Source of the DNA: Candidatus Poriferihabitaceae bacterium
GTDB lineage: Bacteria > Pseudomonadota > Gammaproteobacteria > Arenicellales > Poriferihabitantaceae
Assembly: GCA_965237995.1 (NCBI GenBank)
Contig: CBDEGO010000004.1
Span: 451,780-515,779 of the forward strand
Direction: 5' to 3'
Length of the DNA: 64,000 nucleotides
This document shows positions 6,482 to 35,754 of the stretch, in pieces (positions within the stretch are counted from its first letter, which is position 1; each line of letters begins with the position of its first letter). The translations under genes and the position numbers were made by a program. Below the pieces are notes generated by a model. The model was not told the origin of the DNA and ran no database searches. It saw only the letters and a list, made by a program, of their open reading frames with translations.

Positions 6482-7300
6482 ATGATTCTTGATCAGTTTT
6501 TGAAAGCCTTAAAAACCAGCGCACTTATTTTAGGCTTATTGCTTATCTTCGCGCTTCCTAGTGTCTTTGCCGCAGAAGATAGCGCAGACCTGATTTGGGC
6601 GCAAACACTCGAACAGTACGTAAATGACAAGGGTTTTGTCGATTATGACAGCCTCAGCAAAAACCGAACTGAATTTGATCAATATATTCTAAAACTGCAA
6701 ACCACAGGCCCAACCACCACCCCCGAAAACTATGGCAGCGCTCATTCACAGCTAGCGTATTACATCAATGCTTATAATGCGATGGTGTTTAAAGGCGTGC
6801 TAGACCGAGGACCTGAAAAAGAGAGCGTTTGGAAGGGTTGGATTTCTGGCCTAAACTTCTTTGTTCGCATGGACATTGTCGTTGACGGCAAGAAAACCAA
6901 TTTAAAAAAACTAGAAGACAAAGTGGTTCGCGCGCAGTTTAAAGACCCGCGCATTCATGCCGCTTTAAACTGCGCATCGGTTAGTTGCCCTCGGCTGATT
7001 CAAGAACCGTATGTTGCCGAAAAGCTTGACCAACAACTTGACGATGCAATGCACGAATTCCTTAATAGCGATATGCATGTGTTGGTAAATGCTGAGAAAC
7101 AAACCGTTGGTTTATCGAAAATACTCGATTGGTACGATTCTGATTTTACCGCCTACGAAGCCCAACAAGGTAATACCGCAGGTAGCAAAAATAGCCGCCT
7201 ATTGAATTTCGTGAATCGCTACCGCGATAAGGCGTCGCAAATTCCGATCGACTATAAAGTGCGATTACTTAAGTACGACAAAGGCATCAATGCGCAGTAA
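6482..7300 (+). CDS. DUF547 domain-containing exported protein
   Basis: Signal peptide ...LIFALPSVFAAED. The motif HAALNCASVSCPRL is what I recall as the DUF547 hallmark. Confidence 0.65.
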   Translation: MILDQFLKALKTSALILGLLLIFALPSVFAAEDSADLIWAQTLEQYVNDKGFVDYDSLSKNRTEFDQYILKLQTTGPTTTPENYGSAHSQLAYYINAYNAMVFKGVLDRGPEKESVWKGWISGLNFFVRMDIVVDGKKTNLKKLEDKVVRAQFKDPRIHAALNCASVSCPRLIQEPYVAEKLDQQLDDAMHEFLNSDMHVLVNAEKQTVGLSKILDWYDSDFTAYEAQQGNTAGSKNSRLLNFVNRYRDKASQIPIDYKVRLLKYDKGINAQ

Positions 7301-7324
7301 ACTAAATTCGGAAGTTAAGACAAA

Positions 7325-7657
7325 TTACAACTGCGCGATGGTTATTGCGTATTTAGCTGCACACGCAAACAAGACCACTAGGACTATTGGCTTGGCTTTA
7401 AGTAATACCGAAGGAACACGCGCAGAGCACAACAAATAAGCTGCCGTAATGATCATTACCACCCCTGACACTAAAGCCGCCAAGCCCCAAAACTCGGTTA
7501 AATGTTGCAAGCCATACCATAGCGCATTCCACAGGCCCGCCGCGAGTAGCACCCACCCCACTATAGCACTTAACCAATTCGGCAGCTTGCTCTGCAATAA
7601 AGCCGTAACCAGACCTGCGATCATGCAAGCCGTGACAATTGTTCCCATTGGAAGCAT
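7325..7657 (-). CDS. Small integral membrane protein (hypothetical)
   Basis: 110 aa with four hydrophobic segments. Two overlapping alternative-frame ORFs were rejected in its favour. Confidence 0.45.
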   Translation of the reverse strand: MLPMGTIVTACMIAGLVTALLQSKLPNWLSAIVGWVLLAAGLWNALWYGLQHLTEFWGLAALVSGVVMIITAAYLLCSARVPSVLLKAKPIVLVVLFACAAKYAITIAQL

Positions 7658-7758
7658 ATCAAACCCTCATTAGTAATTCGCCTCGATATTAAGTGACTCC
7701 CTATTCTTAGGCAAGCATCAAGCTTGTCGCTGGGCCTTGTCTGAGCGAGAATAGCGCC

Positions 7759-28783: not shown

Positions 28784-29875
28784 CTATTTGGTAATAAGGT
28801 AAGCGTATTCGCGCGGCCAGTTAACCCAAATAGTCTGCCCTGTCTCAAGATGAATTTCATCTAATTCCTTTTGCTGTTTCTGGATTTTAAGCTCTACCCC
28901 TTCGTCCGTTTCTACCAACAAACTCACTACTGTCCCAATAAATTCTTCACTAATGAGTTTGCACTTAAACGTATTGGATTCTGCTGCTGTTGGTTCACTA
29001 CTAGCGATATTTAAACGGTCCGCGCTGATAACAATTTCAGCGTGATCGCCCACTTTCAAATTTTTTGATTTTTGCGCCGCAATCTCCACAGAACCAAGTT
29101 CCGTTTCAATAAGCACGGTAGTATCGCCAACTTCAGAAATCTCGCCAGATAAAATATTATTTGAGCCAACGAACTCAGCGACAAACCGTGAAGCCGGTTC
29201 ACGGAAAACTTGCTGCGGGGTGCCGATTTGTTCGATTACGCCTTTACTCATGATGATAACTCTGTCCGCCATCGCGAAAGCTTCCGACTGGCTATGCGTC
29301 ACGTAAACAAAAGTAATACCGAGTTCTTTCTGTAAACGCGACAACACGCCTTGCATGCGTACAACTAGGTTTGCATCAAGTGCGCTAAGTGGCTCGTCTA
29401 GCAATAATACCGGGGGTTCGGTGACTAATGCTCTCGCGAGCGCGACGCGTTGGCGTTGGCCTCCGGATAGCATATCCACTGGCCGCTCTGCGAATTCGGC
29501 GATCTCCATGCGTTCTAGCCATTTCATCGCGCGCTGCCTGCGTTCAGCAGCTTCTATGCCGCGCATCTTTAGCCCAAATTCCACATTCTCAATGACGTTT
29601 AAAAACGGAAATAAAGCTAGGGATTGCCACACCAGCGGCGTATCACGTTCAGAAGGCTTTAGCTCGTTAATACGATTACCGTCTAGACGAATTTCTCCTT
29701 CACTGGGTGTTTCAAGACCCGCCAGCATTCTTAACGTGGTAGTTTTTCCGCAACCACTGGAGCCCATAATCGCCAAAAATTCGCCTTTCTCGATATGAAA
29801 ACTCATTTGCTCAACCGCAACAGACTCTCCGAAGCGCTTAATGATACTGTCGAAAATAATTTGCGGTTCAGACAT
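28784..29875 (-). CDS. ABC transporter ATP-binding protein (PotA-like, C-terminal TOBE-type domain)
   Basis: Walker A GSSGCGKTT, signature LSGGQRQRVALARAL, Walker B LLLDEPLSALD. Confidence 0.9.
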   Translation of the reverse strand: MSEPQIIFDSIIKRFGESVAVEQMSFHIEKGEFLAIMGSSGCGKTTTLRMLAGLETPSEGEIRLDGNRINELKPSERDTPLVWQSLALFPFLNVIENVEFGLKMRGIEAAERRQRAMKWLERMEIAEFAERPVDMLSGGQRQRVALARALVTEPPVLLLDEPLSALDANLVVRMQGVLSRLQKELGITFVYVTHSQSEAFAMADRVIIMSKGVIEQIGTPQQVFREPASRFVAEFVGSNNILSGEISEVGDTTVLIETELGSVEIAAQKSKNLKVGDHAEIVISADRLNIASSEPTAAESNTFKCKLISEEFIGTVVSLLVETDEGVELKIQKQQKELDEIHLETGQTIWVNWPREYAYLITK

Positions 29876-30671
29876 AAGGTGTTTTCTTGGGTGTTCGGAG
29901 AATAAGAATAGTTTGCGCGATAATGATTAAGGTCATCGAAGTCAAAAACACAAATGTACCAATTGCGTTAATTTGCGGGTCAGTCGTACCTTGCAAAATT
30001 TCTAGAATGAGTACAGGAATAGTTTTATTTAGCCCCGATACAAACCAAGCGACTGCAAACTCATCAAAGGAGACCGCCATAGTTAAGCAGACGGATGAAA
30101 TCAGCGCGGGTTTTACAAACGGAATGATCACCGCTCGCATCGTACTCCATTCGCTGGCACCTAGATTCCACGCAGCTGATTCGAGATCTGGGTCCATTTG
30201 CTGCAAACGCAAGCGGATGATCGCCATAGCAAACGGAGCGCAAAGGACGGTGTGCGCAATAACGATCGTCCACAATCTGCCAGAAATACCTATCTTAGAA
30301 AACCAAGCTAGCATCGCTAACGCTAAGATGATAAGCGGAATCGTCGGCGGCAACAAAGCCAGTGCGAGATAGCTGTTCTTACCTTTAAACTGATAACGAA
30401 AATCGGTGTAGGCAGTGCAAAAACCAATAAACGTGGCAATCACACTAGTGCAAGTAGCGACGACTAAACTTTTCTTGGCGGCCTTCCAAACGTCGGGATC
30501 TGCGAATATATTTTCGTACCATTGCCAAGTAAATGACCCTAGTGGGATTGAAGGAAACCGATCAGAGTTAAATGAAAAAATAATGCTGGTGATGATCGGT
30601 GCAAACACAAATAAGAATATTAACCCTAAGTAAGCCAGTAGAGCGAAACGAACAGTGCGATCAATATTCAT
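29868..30671 (-). CDS. ABC transporter permease (PotC-like)
   Basis: Six TM segments with an EAA-type loop, ESAAWNLGASEWSTMRAVIIP. I chose the ATG at 30671 (MNIDRT...), which avoids overlap with the upstream permease. Confidence 0.8.
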   Translation of the reverse strand: MNIDRTVRFALLAYLGLIFLFVFAPIITSIIFSFNSDRFPSIPLGSFTWQWYENIFADPDVWKAAKKSLVVATCTSVIATFIGFCTAYTDFRYQFKGKNSYLALALLPPTIPLIILALAMLAWFSKIGISGRLWTIVIAHTVLCAPFAMAIIRLRLQQMDPDLESAAWNLGASEWSTMRAVIIPFVKPALISSVCLTMAVSFDEFAVAWFVSGLNKTIPVLILEILQGTTDPQINAIGTFVFLTSMTLIIIAQTILILRTPKKTPYV

Positions 30672-30678
30672 TTCGACT

Positions 30679-31539
30679 CTAGCGCTTCTTACTGTAGGCC
30701 AATTTGATGGCGGTAAAGGCCACAACCATTAGCGTTAACATCATCATCACTGCAATCACTGCCGCCCTAGGCCACTGTTGACCAGACTTGGTAGTATCTA
30801 TAATAAGTATAGTTAAAGTGGGCGGTTTGGAGCCGCCCAAATAATAAGGTGCGACGAAATCACCAAATGACATAATAAAGCAAAAAACTGCGCCAATAAT
30901 TAAGCCCACTTTGGCCGAGGGTAATATCACTTTTAAAATGACTTTCAGCCTGCTCGCACCTAAGTTTTGCGCCGCTTCAATTAGATTACGATCTACATTG
31001 GCCATCGAAATAGTTTGTAGAATGATCACTAAAGGCAGAGTGAGCGTCATATAGCCAATTAGAGTGCCGAATTGGGTGTTCAGCATTTTGTAGGGACCAA
31101 GCCCAATATTGGCTAGCAAGGCATTAATCACTCCCGATTCAGCCAGTATGACAAACCATGAAAAGGTGCGTACTAAGTAGCTGGTGAAAAATGGAATAAT
31201 TAACAAAAAGATGATCCAGCGCCGCGTGCTTTCAGAGACTTTAAACGCTAAGCCGTAAGAAGCTGGAAAGGCCAGACACGAAGCCACAACGGTGGCTAGC
31301 GTCGCCATTGCAAAGGTATAGAAATAAGCATCCCAGAAATAATCTTTACTGAACATTTTGATCCAGTTTTTCATTTCGAATGCTTCGACCATGCGGTAGT
31401 TCTTTACCAAGAAAAAACTCATTGCCACCATAAACAATAGTGGCCCCACAAAAAATAACACCTGCCAGATGATCATAGGCAAGCGCCATGTCATGGCATA
31501 GAGATCAAATCTTGATTGCTTCACCTTAGGTGCGGACAT
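30679..31539 (-). CDS. ABC transporter permease (PotB-like)
   Basis: EAA-type loop EAAQNLGASRLKVILKVILP. The start is either the ATG at 31539 or the TTG at 31578, so it is uncertain. Confidence 0.8.
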   Translation of the reverse strand: MSAPKVKQSRFDLYAMTWRLPMIIWQVLFFVGPLLFMVAMSFFLVKNYRMVEAFEMKNWIKMFSKDYFWDAYFYTFAMATLATVVASCLAFPASYGLAFKVSESTRRWIIFLLIIPFFTSYLVRTFSWFVILAESGVINALLANIGLGPYKMLNTQFGTLIGYMTLTLPLVIILQTISMANVDRNLIEAAQNLGASRLKVILKVILPSAKVGLIIGAVFCFIMSFGDFVAPYYLGGSKPPTLTILIIDTTKSGQQWPRAAVIAVMMMLTLMVVAFTAIKLAYSKKR

Positions 31540-31595
31540 TGAATCTACAGATGCTAGATGTTGGTCTATTCGGCGCAACCGATTTATACAAAATA

Positions 31596-31648
31596 ATAGA
31601 TGGCCGTAGCCATCTATTGCAAGTGTTGTTGCGGCTTATTCGAGCCGC
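31596..31648 (-). terminator. Intercistronic hairpins after the binding-protein gene (possible attenuator/stabiliser)
   Basis: A 9-bp perfect stem ATAGATGGC/GCCATCTAT (31596-31617) is followed on the minus strand by TATTTTGT. A second 6-bp stem GCGGCT/AGCCGC lies at 31631-31648. Confidence 0.45.
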
Positions 31649-31667
31649 ACGACATAAGCCTGACAAA

Positions 31668-32816
31668 TTAGGCGTTTTTGTACTCAGACCAAAAATCATT
31701 CCATGTTTCTAAGTCTTGTTGCTTAGGTAGGCCGCGGTAGTGAATTTTACCCTCGTTGATTAACGCGACAGGGTCGTTCACCGCGCCAGTTACTTGGCCA
31801 GTACGTTGCGCTTCTTTAGGGTCAACTTCGTTGAGCATTTTACGGCCAGAATTCGTCACCGCGAAACCGGGATAACCCAGCATTTGCGCCGTCTTCACCT
31901 GCCCTGGCGCTGAAATCGTATATTCAAGATACTTCTTTACGATGTCTTTTTTGGTGGAAGTAGACACAATGCTATAAGACTCTGTCCACTGAATGCCGCC
32001 TTCTTTGGGTACTACAGAGCTTACCGGTGCGCCATCGCGCTCTAGAATGCCGGTTACCCAATCACCAATTCCGACCATGGCAAGCATTTCGCCATTCTTA
32101 AGCCCAGCGAAGGTGCCGCCAAAATCAAAATAACCGCCAACCTGAGACTTAAGCGATAAAGTCTTATCTTGAACTGCTTGCCATGCATCTGAGGAAATAT
32201 CGAATGGCCCTGGATTGTTATTGCCATTTAATAAGCTGATTTGCCCAAGAGAAGGTAGGTGCCAATCAAAGTGACCCACTTTACCTTTTAGCTTAGGGTC
32301 CCAAAAAACGTCGTAGGACATCGCTTCTTCCTTTGAGATTTCGTTTTTATTATAAGACACACCTAAATGTCCGTAACGACTGATTAAAGAATACAATTTG
32401 CCCTCTTTCCAATGACCAGAGAAATTTCTGAAGTCGTCATGCATCAAATCATCCATTGGATAATCCGCTGGATTAAGCTCGTCCACTAATTCTGAATCAA
32501 TTAATAACTGCGCGTACTCTGCATCGGTATGAATCAGATCAAATGTGCCCGGGGGGTTTTGCGCTAGCGCGGCTAACATGTTGTCACCACCCGCATAATA
32601 TTTAGGCACGAACTTCACATTATTCGCAGCTTCAAACTCTGCCACCATGTCAGGTTCTGCTGTGCCGTACCAACCAAGCATATTGATTTCAGTGGGTTCT
32701 GCATAAGCTTTGTTAGAGGTGATAATCATCGGCATGGCTAAAGCGCCAGTCGCTAAAGTCGATGATTTTAAAAACTTTCTTCTGCTGATGTTGCTAGTGA
32801 ATTTTGACTGACTCAT
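31668..32816 (-). CDS. Periplasmic solute-binding protein (PotD/PotF-like) with a Tat-type signal
   Basis: Twin-arginine leader SRRKFLKSSTLATGALAMP...AYA. Size and sequence are typical of a family-1 extracellular solute-binding protein. Confidence 0.8.
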   Translation of the reverse strand: MSQSKFTSNISRRKFLKSSTLATGALAMPMIITSNKAYAEPTEINMLGWYGTAEPDMVAEFEAANNVKFVPKYYAGGDNMLAALAQNPPGTFDLIHTDAEYAQLLIDSELVDELNPADYPMDDLMHDDFRNFSGHWKEGKLYSLISRYGHLGVSYNKNEISKEEAMSYDVFWDPKLKGKVGHFDWHLPSLGQISLLNGNNNPGPFDISSDAWQAVQDKTLSLKSQVGGYFDFGGTFAGLKNGEMLAMVGIGDWVTGILERDGAPVSSVVPKEGGIQWTESYSIVSTSTKKDIVKKYLEYTISAPGQVKTAQMLGYPGFAVTNSGRKMLNEVDPKEAQRTGQVTGAVNDPVALINEGKIHYRGLPKQQDLETWNDFWSEYKNA

Positions 32817-32902
32817 AGTTTTATTTCTCTACTGATGATGAATGGGTTGCGCCATTTACTGCGCGCAAACTGCTGCTGGCCTCTATCGTGTTATGCTATG
32901 CT

Positions 32903-33532
32903 TTACCCAATTTCAGGGAAGCAATCTTCTGCTTTGAATGACGCAAAACTATCCAGCGTTTGCCGATTACATTGCTCTTGAATAGCTGAACCACGTATCA
33001 CGCAGGATGACATTTTATAGTTGGCGTACATCTTAGCGCTGGCTTCGTTATCTTCGATGCATACAGCTGCAATTCCAGCCACTATACCGCCTTGTCGCTC
33101 AACTAATTCAATACCTGAAGTCATGGTTCCGCCGGTCTCAATCCACTGGTCAACAAGTAACACGCGCGTACCTTTGGCAAAAGCAGGCTTACGCATTTCC
33201 ATCGATTCAGTTTGACCAGAGTAATTAGTCATCGGCACAACATCGAATTCTACGGGAATCTTACCGCCTTTGCGAATGGTCAAAAAACCTTTGCGCAATT
33301 TGGTTGCCATGCCCGCACCTAGCACGAACCCAGCCGCGTCAAACCCTGCCACTACATCAATTTCACTCGCGTCAAAGGGCTTTAGCAAATCATCCATCAT
33401 TGCGTGGAATGAATCGGCGTTGATATAAGCTGAAGATGGATCAAGCCAAGCGTATTTTTCACCGCGAGAACGCGGAGCCATCAAGTCTAAGTACCATCTA
33501 TCGCTACGATCATTTGTTTCGCTATTGCTCAT
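32903..33532 (-). CDS. Adenine-phosphoribosyltransferase-like type I PRTase
   Basis: The APRT-like core reads GFDAAGFVLGAGMATKLRKGFLTIRKGGKIP. The PRPP loop is VLLVDQWIETGGTM. Confidence 0.7.
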   Translation of the reverse strand: MSNSETNDRSDRWYLDLMAPRSRGEKYAWLDPSSAYINADSFHAMMDDLLKPFDASEIDVVAGFDAAGFVLGAGMATKLRKGFLTIRKGGKIPVEFDVVPMTNYSGQTESMEMRKPAFAKGTRVLLVDQWIETGGTMTSGIELVERQGGIVAGIAAVCIEDNEASAKMYANYKMSSCVIRGSAIQEQCNRQTLDSFASFKAEDCFPEIG

Positions 33533-34268
33533 CGTTATTTATGTTCTCTAATAGGTTGTCTAGGAGGGCAGCGTCCAAATTATAAAAATCGCCCGGTTGG
33601 CTAATGCCAGTCGCCACAAGAATGGCGTCTAAATGTTGTGCATAGCTAGCAACATTCTCCGGAGTAATTCCAGAGGCAAGCCCTAAGCTACACTCGTCGA
33701 TGTGATTTCGAAAGAGTGTCACTTTGTCTACACCCGCTTCAACGCCCGTTGCAGTACCAGAAGTCGTGACGACATCCATCCACTTAGCGGCAATTGTGGC
33801 AGAAACAGGCCAATCGGTTTCTTTTACTTCGCGCTGCTTTTTAAAGACCGTGCCACCAAAATAAATGCCTGACCAACCGCATTGTTTTTTAACAGCTAAG
33901 GATTCAGCCGCTTCTGGCTGATCGTTTACATCACAGCTCTCGTCAATTCTAGCATCATCGGCCCAATAGCCATCGATTCGACAGCCTTCATCTTCCAGTT
34001 CGGCGAGTATTGGAAAAGCAATGTTACCAGGTACCGCTAAAAAATTCAGGCCAAGCCAAATGTTCGGATAAGCTACGCGCACCGCTTTAACAATCGGTAG
34101 AAAAGGTTCGACCCCAAAGTCATGATTAATCAGAAAAACCCCCGCAACGCCTTTGTTGATAGCCAGTTCAACATTTCTCAAAGCTTGTTCGGTGTCGAGA
34201 ACATGAATCACCGGAAATACAGCAGGGCCATCGACCTTGAAGGTTTTTTTGAAATCAAGTCGATGCAT
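33522..34268 (-). CDS. BtpA/SgcQ-like TIM-barrel protein
   Basis: FPVIHVLD near the N-terminus and a C-terminal phosphate-binding-like segment, LGLASGITPENV...AILVATGIS. The family assignment is by eye only. Confidence 0.45.
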   Translation of the reverse strand: MHRLDFKKTFKVDGPAVFPVIHVLDTEQALRNVELAINKGVAGVFLINHDFGVEPFLPIVKAVRVAYPNIWLGLNFLAVPGNIAFPILAELEDEGCRIDGYWADDARIDESCDVNDQPEAAESLAVKKQCGWSGIYFGGTVFKKQREVKETDWPVSATIAAKWMDVVTTSGTATGVEAGVDKVTLFRNHIDECSLGLASGITPENVASYAQHLDAILVATGISQPGDFYNLDAALLDNLLENINNDEQ

Positions 34269-34621
34269 ATTCGAGTAAAAGTGGGCGATTAAATTACGAC
34301 AGTTAAGTTAGTCAGTATAGCGTCTAAGGTCTGTAGACACTTCACATTGGCAACGACAGGAAACGACATACAAGTGCCGACATGCCCTGATAATTTTGCA
34401 CTAATTTATCATACCGTATAGCGATTAACTTGAGTTCTTCAATCTAGCCCATACCGCTTCAACCAAATAACAACATTTGCGTAAGCGCCCATCCAGGCCA
34501 TTACCATCAATAATCAGATTATTTTTACTGGGAATTCACTCCACCCTAAAACCTAGCGCGGAGTGGACAAACCCGCCGTCAACCCCGTTGGACTAATCGC
34601 GTTTTAGTACTGGTGAACCCA

Positions 34622-35434
34622 CTAAAACAACGAAGCACTCAATTCGTCAATCGCCTGTAGCATTTCAGGGTCGTCTGTCAATGCTTGGGTAATTGCTCCT
34701 TGGCATGCAGTAACAGGGTCTATTCCGGTTTCTATTAGCTTCGCAGCATGCACTAGTAGGCGCGTACTCGCCCCTTCATCCAAACCATTACCTTTAAGGT
34801 TTCTGGTCATTCGCGCAAACTTCACTAATTGTTTAGCCGTATTGGAATCCACCCGAGATTCCTTTTCAACAATTCCTTGCTCTAGCTCTGCGTCAGGATA
34901 ATCAAACTCAATACCAATGAATCGTTGCCGCGTACTTTGCTTAAGGTCTTTAAGTACGCTTTGATATCCTGGGTTATACGAAATTGCTAAGCAAAACTCG
35001 TCGGACGCTTGCAGCAATTCACCCGTTTTCTCGATCGGTAGTACTCGCCTGTCATCCGCCAAGGGGTGAATCACAACGGTGGTATCTTTACGCGCCTCAA
35101 CCACTTCATCTAAGTAGCAAATGCCGCCAGCCCGCACTGCTCGGGCTAATGGCCCATCCGTCCACTTAGTTTCACCACCAATGATGAGGTAGCGCCCAAC
35201 TAAATCTGAGGAGGTTAGATCATCATGGCAAGACACCGTTATTAGCGGGCGTTTTAATCGCCAAGCCATATGCTCCATAAAGCGGCTCTTGCCACAACCT
35301 GTAGGCCCTTTGAGTAGAACAGGAATGCCATTTTTATAAGCGGCTTCGAACAGCTCAATTTCGTCACCCTGCGCCGAGTAAAATGGCTCGTCGGCAATCA
35401 TATAAGCATCAACACCGCTTTGTTTGGTTGTCAT
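34622..35434 (-). CDS. CbbQ/NirQ/NorQ/GpvN-family MoxR-type AAA+ ATPase
   Basis: [45 protein letters not shown] and [21 protein letters not shown] closely match the CbbQ/NorQ proteins I recall. I chose the start at MTTKQ. Confidence 0.8.
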
Positions 35435-35754
35435 CACTACTGAATTTATCAAGAACAAGTAAGCGTGAATAATAGGTTTTAGTGCTGTCAAAAGCCACCT
35501 GAAACTGATGTCTAAATTAACTTAGCACCATAACCATTCGTGAAATACTCAGTACTTTGAAAAACCTACGATTAAGTATTAAAGACCGAAATGAGGCAAT
35601 GGCACCCTATTGCATAGCCCATCGAAATCAGAAAGTTCCGGCAGCGGCTACAGCTCATAGCATTGAGAGAACAGACTAAATCTTCCAAAATAGCTTGATT
35701 AATTACTTTCACCCCGCACCTTAAGCATTCACTAGAAGAAGATTGACTCTAAGC

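Follow-up and report, generated by a model that had tools for sequence, protein, structure and literature searches.

A mobile operon joining a Pot-like ABC importer to an APRT-like phosphoribosyltransferase and a (β/α)8 barrel in a Candidatus Poriferihabitaceae bacterium

The operon considered here lies, together with its leader, on the minus strand at positions 28784–34621 of a 64,000-nucleotide stretch of the Candidatus Poriferihabitaceae bacterium assembly GCA_965237995.1 (contig CBDEGO010000004.1, positions 451,780 to 515,779 of the forward strand; referred to below as the window). It consists of six close-packed open reading frames (ORFs) which encode, in order, a (β/α)8 barrel, a type I phosphoribosyltransferase (PRTase), a periplasmic substrate-binding protein (SBP), two permeases and an ATPase, and we find that it is one copy of a horizontally mobile accessory module which is a real, conserved functional unit. 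On balance, we lean towards a role in which the operon imports a cytosine- or creatinine-like heterocycle, the PRTase traps it with phosphoribosyl pyrophosphate (PRPP), the barrel processes the resulting ribotide, and the product passes to pyrimidine salvage or to the uracil catabolism (URC) pathway. An initial annotation of the window had proposed the import of a base-like or amine compound followed by ribosyl-phosphorylation and further conversion, and had recognised no pathway that would couple such genes. In outline this proposal is borne out by the co-conservation of the genes, the fusion of two of them in 30 loci, the PRPP synthetase genes found in three loci, and the pyrimidine-related neighbours, but the novelty it implied is not, as the upp-uraA and xpt-pbuX operons are already known to pair a transporter for a base with a PRTase.

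A pattern scan using one genome per species placed the PRTase family in about 490 species, and amongst the best 80 loci the prominent carriers are sponge symbionts (Ca. Spongiihabitans and Poriferihabitaceae), Arenicellales, SAR116, Rhodobacterales and Hyphomicrobiales. Homologs of the barrel and of the PRTase number in the thousands in marine metagenomes, many of them on common contigs, and the module proteins are abundant in Tara Oceans assemblies. Co-conservation was determined by tblastn, and neighbouring genes by grouping the ORFs from every locus into clusters and annotating those that recur, over a set of 83 loci to which the counts given below refer. The barrel gene is found directly upstream of the PRTase gene on the same strand in 80 of these loci, an orthologous SBP (54–86% identity) is present in 71, and both permeases (orthologs 58–82% identical) are present in 65, with most of the absences falling at contig ends. 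The initial annotation had allowed that the gene set might not be conserved together elsewhere, and this neighbourhood check shows that it is. The association of the barrel and PRTase with the importer spans at least five bacterial orders and takes two layouts, one colinear as in the window and the other with the barrel and PRTase genes divergent from those of the transporter, often separated by a LysR regulator gene. The module is patchy amongst relatives of the source organism, being found in two of ten sister genera, one of twelve other families of the order, and none of eight congeners.

The barrel (33522–34268, 248 amino acids) is encoded by an ORF that shares 11 nt with that of the PRTase (33522–33532), and in 30 loci the two genes form one full-length open frame of 441–486 amino acids. 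Because in-frame fusions of this kind constitute a Rosetta-stone relation, they argue that the two proteins would act together. The barrel had been described as a BtpA/SgcQ-like TIM barrel, and of this description the fold stands, as an AlphaFold (AF2) model is a (β/α)8 structure (pLDDT 90.5, pTM 0.89). The family assignment does not, with a score of 27.5 bits against Pfam BtpA (PF03437, cutoff 30), where only the C-terminal third matches, and 28.4 bits against TIGR00259 (cutoff 153.4), and the protein is better regarded as a distant relative of that family (many of its homologs carry a precomputed PF03437 label). Sequence and profile searches of the PDB found no relative of the barrel. The nearest structures identified by Foldseek are TrpA, RPE, MfnB, PcrB, KDPGal aldolase and OMPDC, with TM scores of at most 0.70 and identities of at most 16% (the Foldseek probability is 1.00 for TrpA, RPE, MfnB, PcrB and OMPDC). 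Strands 7 and 8 are followed by conserved ASGIT and ATGI loops similar to the standard phosphate site, and with eight strands and Gly-rich loops at these two positions the protein has the features of the ribulose-phosphate-binding (β/α)8 fold and is predicted to bind phosphate. Since the PRTase is the sole enzyme encoded nearby that makes a phosphate ester, we infer that the barrel may work on the 5'-phosphoribosyl product of the PRTase.

In two loci, we note, tblastn aligns just ~74–84 C-terminal residues of the barrel, which are fused in frame to the PRTase. In one of these (L001:8001–8888) the product is 295 amino acids long and the upstream space is occupied by a divergent SBP gene, and this lineage may have lost most of the barrel; in the other (L041) the partial barrel may reflect a cut at the contig end. 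Our literature searches (BtpA with PRTase, SgcQ, DUF1688, URC1/URC4, ribosylurea, and creatinine with PRTase) returned no description of the module.

The PRTase (32903–33532, 209 amino acids) belongs to the type I PRTase superfamily, scoring 42.5 bits against PF00156 (Pribosyltran, cutoff 26.3), and its PRPP loop, VLLVDQWIETGGT, is invariant across 15 diverse family members. Its closest characterised relatives are adenine phosphoribosyltransferases (APRTs; E 5e-18), but it is not itself an APRT, as it scores 88.2 bits against the apt model TIGR01090 (cutoff 185.85) and 97.9 bits against NF002634, the best apt model (cutoff 170). The catalytic flexible loop of APRT, with the Glu-Tyr of its SY-LEYG motif, is not kept: ESYQLEYG in the APRT structure 4m0k pairs with MTNYSGQT, the SY-LEYG segment being TNYSGQT, and the family as a whole conserves N-Y-S-G-(R/Q)-T in place of the APRT motif. 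The family also has unique and conserved N- and C-terminal extensions. Because the PRPP loop is both intact and invariant, the protein is probably an active enzyme with a base specificity other than that of APRT.

It had also been allowed that the PRTase might simply be the sole housekeeping apt gene of the organism, and this we reject. No apt scores above the TIGR01090 cutoff in the source genome, where the operon PRTase is the best apt-like match and is followed by a Bacillus-type Xpt (a xanthine PRTase encoded at C3:642645–643040). A canonical apt (>200 bits) stands alongside the operon-type PRTase in 13 of 24 other carrier genomes and is missing from the remaining 11, and the eight same-genus genomes have neither an operon-type PRTase (0/8) nor a canonical apt (0/8), leaving the whole genus (G000 and G025–G032) without a canonical APRT above the cutoff. 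Since all eight congeners do without both genes, apt is not essential in this genus, and the operon is an accessory that has been acquired.

The SBP (31668–32816, 382 amino acids) has the PotD fold and scores 75.7 bits against SBP_bac_8, and its score of 45.3 bits against the PotD equivalog model (cutoff 582) places it outside PotD/PotF. Of the residues that bind spermidine in PotD (W34, E36, D168, E171, W255, D257 and Y293), only W34, W255 and Y293 are retained in the alignment, with D257 replaced by E, and E36, D168 and E171 replaced by G, W and S, respectively, and the predicted pocket is thus not a polyamine pocket. The N-terminus, SRRKFLKSSTLATGALAMPMIITSNKAYA, carries at residues 11–17 the twin-arginine translocation (Tat) motif S-R-R-K-F-L-K that had been recognised in the initial annotation, with a hydrophobic stretch and then an A-x-A cleavage site behind it, and export by this route is predicted. 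A Tat leader on such a protein had been considered unusual and to hint at a cofactor-bound or pre-folded receptor, and on this point we differ. The twin-arginine motif is found by a strict regular expression in 42 of 54 SBP orthologs, with RR or KR variants in most of the remainder, and the same motif occurs in the SBP relatives found in creatinine contexts, so that the Tat signal is a trait of the whole SBP family and not peculiar to the operon. We found nothing pointing to a cofactor.

These relatives were identified by a tblastn search of plasmids, which found orthologous SBP–permease–permease–ATPase units (47–57% SBP identity) in creatinine-catabolism clusters, often with a LysR regulator. 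A creatininase gene and an M24 creatinase-type gene lie beside the importer in Paracoccus aminovorans, Brucella anthropi, Leisingera caerulea and Azoarcus, and in the Mesorhizobium cluster sarcosine oxidase additionally follows. Other SBP relatives adjoin a CDA-fold deaminase alone, or an amidase, a polysaccharide-deacetylase-type enzyme and a DUF1989 (urea-carboxylase-associated) protein; this third importer context, seen on plasmids of Variovorax and Leisingera methylohalidivorans (L100 and L103), suggests that a sister transporter carries another cyclic ureide or amidine. In a maximum-likelihood tree all 51 PRTase-linked SBPs fall in one clade (100/100 support), the sister group of which is the main creatininase-linked clade. 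Between these two groups the putative pocket columns are near-identical; they are rich in Trp, Tyr, His, Asp and Glu, a composition that would fit a neutral or cationic ligand with N-H donors. A consistent difference is seen at position 281, which is Tyr in PRTase-linked SBPs and Phe or Leu in the others. CodA-type deaminases accept creatinine as well as cytosine.

The recurrent neighbours of the module are concerned with pyrimidines. An Fcy1-type cytosine deaminase is found in 37 loci (E 2.6e-48 to yeast cytosine deaminase structures vs 4e-18 to TadA) and a CodA-type cytosine deaminase in 8 (NCBIfam, 794 bits vs a cutoff of 438), with upp in 26 loci (above cutoff), a URC1-like GTP cyclohydrolase II in 25 (PRK07198, 738 bits) and DUF1688/URC4 in 22 (Pfam label on L006). 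A PuuE-like deacetylase of the same family as that in the amidase/DUF1989 context (60–69% identity) is found in 23 loci, and a LysR regulator recurs in 18. What we refer to as gamma-type loci have the order upp (divergent), one or two CDA-fold genes, barrel–PRTase, SBP, two permeases, ATPase, URC1 and URC4 on one strand, and in L010, from which the transporter is missing, URC1 and URC4 come directly after the fused barrel–PRTase. A PRPP synthetase gene is found near the pair in three loci, right after the PRTase gene (L105), after the module ATPase gene (L029), and ~8.5 kb from the PRTase gene (L030), and this supports the view that PRPP is genuinely consumed by the module.

It should be noted that the CDA-fold genes of gamma-type loci can form tandem pairs 5' of the barrel–PRTase (L031, where the first gene is at 7271–7684, and also L010, L015, L025, L037 and L048). 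The second gene of the pair encodes a clear Fcy1-type cytosine deaminase and the first, judged by eye, apparently does without the PCxxC zinc-ligand motif and may encode an inactive partner subunit. In L020 (11049–12011 and 13941–15293), and likewise in L022, a GST-like gene separates URC1 from URC4, and the gene after URC4 encodes an ammonium transporter, which fits with a nitrogen-scavenging operon.

URC1, URC4 and a uracil phosphoribosyltransferase (UPRT) form the core of uracil catabolism in yeast, the intermediate steps of which are uncharacterised (PMC7530994), and the URC orthologs of Schizosaccharomyces pombe are induced by uracil (PMC2174524). In Azospirillum brasilense Sp245, random-barcode transposon sequencing (RB-TnSeq) has found that the use of cytosine as a nitrogen source needs a cytosine deaminase and the adjoining ABC operon (10.1101/072470), which supports, by analogy, cytosine as the kind of cargo that such operons may bring in. 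The counterpart locus in A. brasilense Sp7 has the order URC1–URC4–upp–SBP–ATPase–permease–permease–CodA and includes no barrel or PRTase; the SBP is BMP-type, and the cytosine transporter is hence an analogue of the importer described here and not an ortholog. This shows that URC catabolism can do without the barrel–PRTase pair, which together with the Pot-like importer moves as one unit.

In the pathway we favour, the Tat-exported SBP would bind a small heterocycle that is rich in nitrogen, neutral or cationic, and of the same type as cytosine and creatinine, the likeliest ligand being cytosine or a close pyrimidine analogue, and this would be imported through the PotB/C/A-like transporter. 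The type I PRTase, if it runs in the direction of ribotide formation, would join the heterocycle to PRPP and trap it as a 5'-phosphoribosyl derivative, following the upp-uraA and xpt-pbuX logic, after which the barrel would bind the 5'-phosphate of this product and perform a second conversion. The final product would then enter pyrimidine nucleotide salvage or, in genomes with URC1 and URC4, a nitrogen-yielding catabolism.

Several points weigh against this pathway. The pocket mapping depends on an alignment to PotD at 20–25% identity, the phosphate-binding role of the barrel is based on resemblance of fold and motif only, and when a natural fusion was modelled by AF2 the domains were each predicted with confidence, but the linker was disordered and the packing between them was not confident (pTM 0.58). 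The literature we searched includes no characterised member of the PRTase, barrel or SBP clades. In the source genome tblastn found upp and no URC1, URC4 or PuuE-like gene, so that the URC pathway is not represented there, and its only codA has an in-frame stop. Furthermore, the use of cytosine needs just a deaminase and upp, and A. brasilense runs URC without the barrel and PRTase, which leaves the role of this pair in a pure cytosine route unexplained. A tentative and rather doubtful suggestion is that the pair performs unprecedented chemistry, as either the first natural cytosine or aminopyrimidine PRTase, coupled to a nucleotide-level step, or an opening of a cyclic ureide (such as N-methylhydantoin formed from creatinine) after activation of the ring by PRPP, in a nucleotide-level catabolic route parallel to URC.

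The main rival explanation is that the importer takes creatinine, which a CodA/Fcy1-type deaminase would convert to N-methylhydantoin, for ribosylation by the PRTase and ring opening by the barrel (with URC1/URC4 or a PuuE-like amidohydrolase). Such a route would mirror, at the nucleotide level, the one that uses an ATP-dependent N-methylhydantoinase, would parallel URC for uracil, and would account for the presence of a PRTase beyond upp. The sister-group relationship between the SBP clade and the SBPs of unambiguous creatinine clusters (with creatininase, M24 creatinase, sarcosine oxidase and hydantoinase), and the shared pocket columns, are in its favour, as is the PuuE-like neighbour, since PuuE opens the hydantoin ring. 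The source genome has creatinase and soxB genes and no creatininase, and many carriers are sponge symbionts, for which creatinine use has been reported (PMC6742649, PMC11812461). Nonetheless, we consider this route somewhat unlikely, as none of the 83 PRTase-linked loci includes a creatininase, creatinase or hydantoinase gene, a long branch sets the PRTase-linked SBPs apart as a clade of their own, and the upp, URC1 and URC4 neighbours indicate uracil. There is also no complementarity between the module and creatininase, as 14 of 25 carrier genomes have both. The proposed chemistry is without description, and Fcy1-type deaminases are not known to act on creatinine.

Two simpler explanations are both unlikely. 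Were the PRTase a divergent working adenine or purine PRTase which has replaced apt, with the transporter carrying adenine or another purine, this would agree with the APRTs being its closest characterised relatives and with the source genome and 11 of 24 carriers being without a canonical apt, and another Pot-annotated ABC system in SAR116 has been called a purine transporter from its context (Braakman et al. 2025; PMC11698098). That system is ordered ATPase–SBP–permease–permease beside xanthine dehydrogenase, and probably represents a paralogous family and not the importer described here. Such plain purine salvage is made very unlikely by the sub-cutoff scores of the PRTase against every apt model and the lack of conservation of the APRT catalytic-loop residues, as well as by the carriers with a true apt and the congeners without either gene; the neighbours are pyrimidine and not purine genes, and the obligatory barrel has no part in adenine salvage. 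Hardly credible is an ordinary polyamine importer, in which PotABCD-like genes would lie beside two unrelated enzymes by chance. The best named models for all four transporter proteins are indeed Pot models and database labels refer to spermidine/putrescine, but every Pot equivalog score is well under its cutoff, the key acidic ligand residues of PotD are replaced, the barrel–PRTase association is retained across orders and layouts, and the sister clades of the SBP are found in creatinine clusters. We also rejected a replacement of UMP synthase or a salvage of orotate, as the source genome has canonical pyrE and pyrF genes and the acidic pocket predicted for the SBP speaks against an anionic ligand such as orotate.

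Returning to the operon itself, the SBP, two BPD_transp_1 permeases and an ABC ATPase encoded in one operon make up a type I binding-protein-dependent ABC importer. The permeases are PotB-like (30679–31578; 123 bits against the PotB model, cutoff 348) and PotC-like (29868–30725; 173 bits against PotC, cutoff 326), and the ATPase (28784–29875) combines ABC_tran (128.8 bits) with a C-terminal TOBE_2 domain (30.7 bits) and is PotA-like (334 bits against PotA, cutoff 482). As these domain assignments (made using Pfam and NCBIfam) show, the scores against the equivalog models for apt, PotA, PotB, PotC, PotD and BtpA are all well under the curated cutoffs. The packing of six minus-strand genes with overlaps in the initial annotation agrees with the ORF positions, including the 8 nt shared by the PotC-like permease and ATPase ORFs (29868–29875). 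Both permease ORFs as listed have a TTG start and they overlap each other by 47 nt. Internal ATGs occur at residue 14 of the PotB-like ORF and residue 19 of the PotC-like ORF (~30671), the latter being probably the real start of the PotC-like permease; these appear from the sequence to be more plausible starts for both, and would leave the two genes 7 nt apart.

The two strong hairpins that had been noticed between the SBP and permease genes are supported by folding of the intercistronic region (31579–31667, minus strand), which has a minimum free energy of –30.9 kcal/mol and a z-score of –4.5, with none of 200 shuffled sequences folding as well. The second hairpin (31618–31595) is terminator-like, with a 10-bp stem followed by a U-rich tail. 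A stable hairpin recurs within 90 nt of the SBP stop codon in other loci (median z –3.1, and below –2 in 36 of 53 loci) with no conservation of sequence. Such hairpins commonly serve to keep the output of binding protein above that of the membrane subunits, and in the operon the hairpins would raise the ratio of the SBP to the membrane components.

The leader is the 353-nt intergenic region between the cbbQ-like gene and the operon (34269–34621, minus strand), and it is free of ORFs of 60 amino acids or more, as first described; the longest ORF on its coding strand is 26 amino acids and it has no plausible leader peptide. The suggestion that it might hold a regulatory RNA or riboswitch is not supported, as it has no matches to Rfam 15 at E values up to 10, folds no better than shuffled sequences (z = –0.23), and shares no similarity with the leader of the L090 ortholog (the PRTases are 91% identical, and the flanks are also different), and in many relatives other genes precede the barrel gene in the operon. 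No sigma-70 or sigma-54 consensus match is found on the coding strand of the leader, which presumably comprises the terminator of the cbbQ-like gene and the operon promoter.

Upstream of the leader, the synteny with congeners (folKP, methyltransferase, dgkA, trx and cbbQ) stops exactly at the 3' end of cbbQ, beyond which the DNA is rearranged, and we could identify no clean insertion site, as the congeners have rearranged blocks at this position and no simple empty site. Every congener examined retains synteny over the cbbQ/norQ-like AAA+ gene (window 34622–35491) and its upstream block (83–88% identity). In one congener, G027, the cbbQ-like gene likewise has no VWA partner after it, and a cbbQ-like paralog with 60% identity is found elsewhere in the source genome (C6:282203–282991).

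Elsewhere in this genome, the codA homolog at C5:5133–6410 (53% identical to a module-linked CodA) has its TAG stop at codon 130, with a locally scrambled stretch ahead of it, and the phzF-like gene beside it (C5:6501–7344) is frameshifted; this damage may reflect gene decay or assembly indels. In L090, the closest relative, a phzF gene and an amidohydrolase gene flank the module itself. On the same contig as the operon and ~245 kb upstream of the window, a creatinase-like M24 gene (59% identity to that of Mesorhizobium) lies next to soxB, which encodes sarcosine oxidase beta (63%), at C4:206211–208678, and no creatininase-family gene was found in the genome.

The identity of the ligand would correct a widespread misannotation, as databases label the three distinctive proteins of the module "adenine phosphoribosyltransferase", "BtpA/SgcQ" and "spermidine/putrescine-binding protein". 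The carriers include SAR116, roseobacters and dominant sponge symbionts, and knowing the ligand would extend the routes by which nucleobases or creatinine are cross-fed as nitrogen sources in the sea. No biochemical characterisation of the BtpA/SgcQ family was found in the literature searched, and one of its branches would gain its first assigned reaction. Cultured carriers exist (Rhodovulum sp. P5, for example), and the proteins are small and probably soluble. Furthermore, because the pair is co-transcribed with URC1 and URC4 in many genomes, the ligand may clarify the uncharacterised steps of the URC pathway. If either form of the unprecedented chemistry suggested above were true, it would mean that sponge symbionts and abundant marine bacteria scavenge nitrogen by a new route.

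When compared with known systems, the transporter and PRTase logic of the module is familiar, whereas the transporter clade, the PRTase clade and above all the reaction of the barrel are uncharacterised. As in upp-uraA and xpt-pbuX, a putative free-base transporter is co-transcribed with a PRPP-dependent type I PRTase which would trap the base as a nucleotide; those operons have an NCS2 permease where the module has an SBP-dependent PotD-fold ABC system, the PRTase of the module belongs to an uncharacterised APRT-like clade, and its obligatory, often fused, TIM barrel has no counterpart in those operons. The URC set (URC1, which is GTP-cyclohydrolase-II-like, URC4/DUF1688 and URC6/UPRT) shares with our proposal the phosphoribosylation of a ureide ring as the entry step, and the module sits between cytosine deaminase/upp and URC1–URC4 on one strand in 22–26 of the 83 loci. 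However, the source genome is without URC1 and URC4, and the A. brasilense locus, which has the gene grammar of the gamma-type loci, combines a BMP-type transporter with no barrel–PRTase. UMP synthase, a fusion of orotate phosphoribosyltransferase (OPRT) and OMP decarboxylase, likewise joins a type I PRTase to a ribulose-phosphate-binding-type barrel which act in sequence and are fused in many lineages, but the barrel described here has a likeness to OMPDC at the level of fold and no relation at the level of sequence, and the genome keeps its pyrE and pyrF. With PotABCD and PotFGHI the importer has in common the ABC architecture, the SBP fold family and the TOBE-bearing ATPase, and differs in its sub-cutoff equivalog scores, the loss of E36, D168 and E171, the predicted Tat export, and the nucleobase/creatinine context. 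Finally, the creatinine clusters on plasmids of Mesorhizobium, Paracoccus aminovorans, Brucella anthropi, Leisingera and Azoarcus have an orthologous importer unit with the Tat signal, nearly the same putative pocket and often a divergent LysR gene, and differ in encoding creatininase, creatinase and sarcosine oxidase with no PRTase or barrel, and in having Phe or Leu at SBP position 281 in contrast to the Tyr of the PRTase-linked clade.

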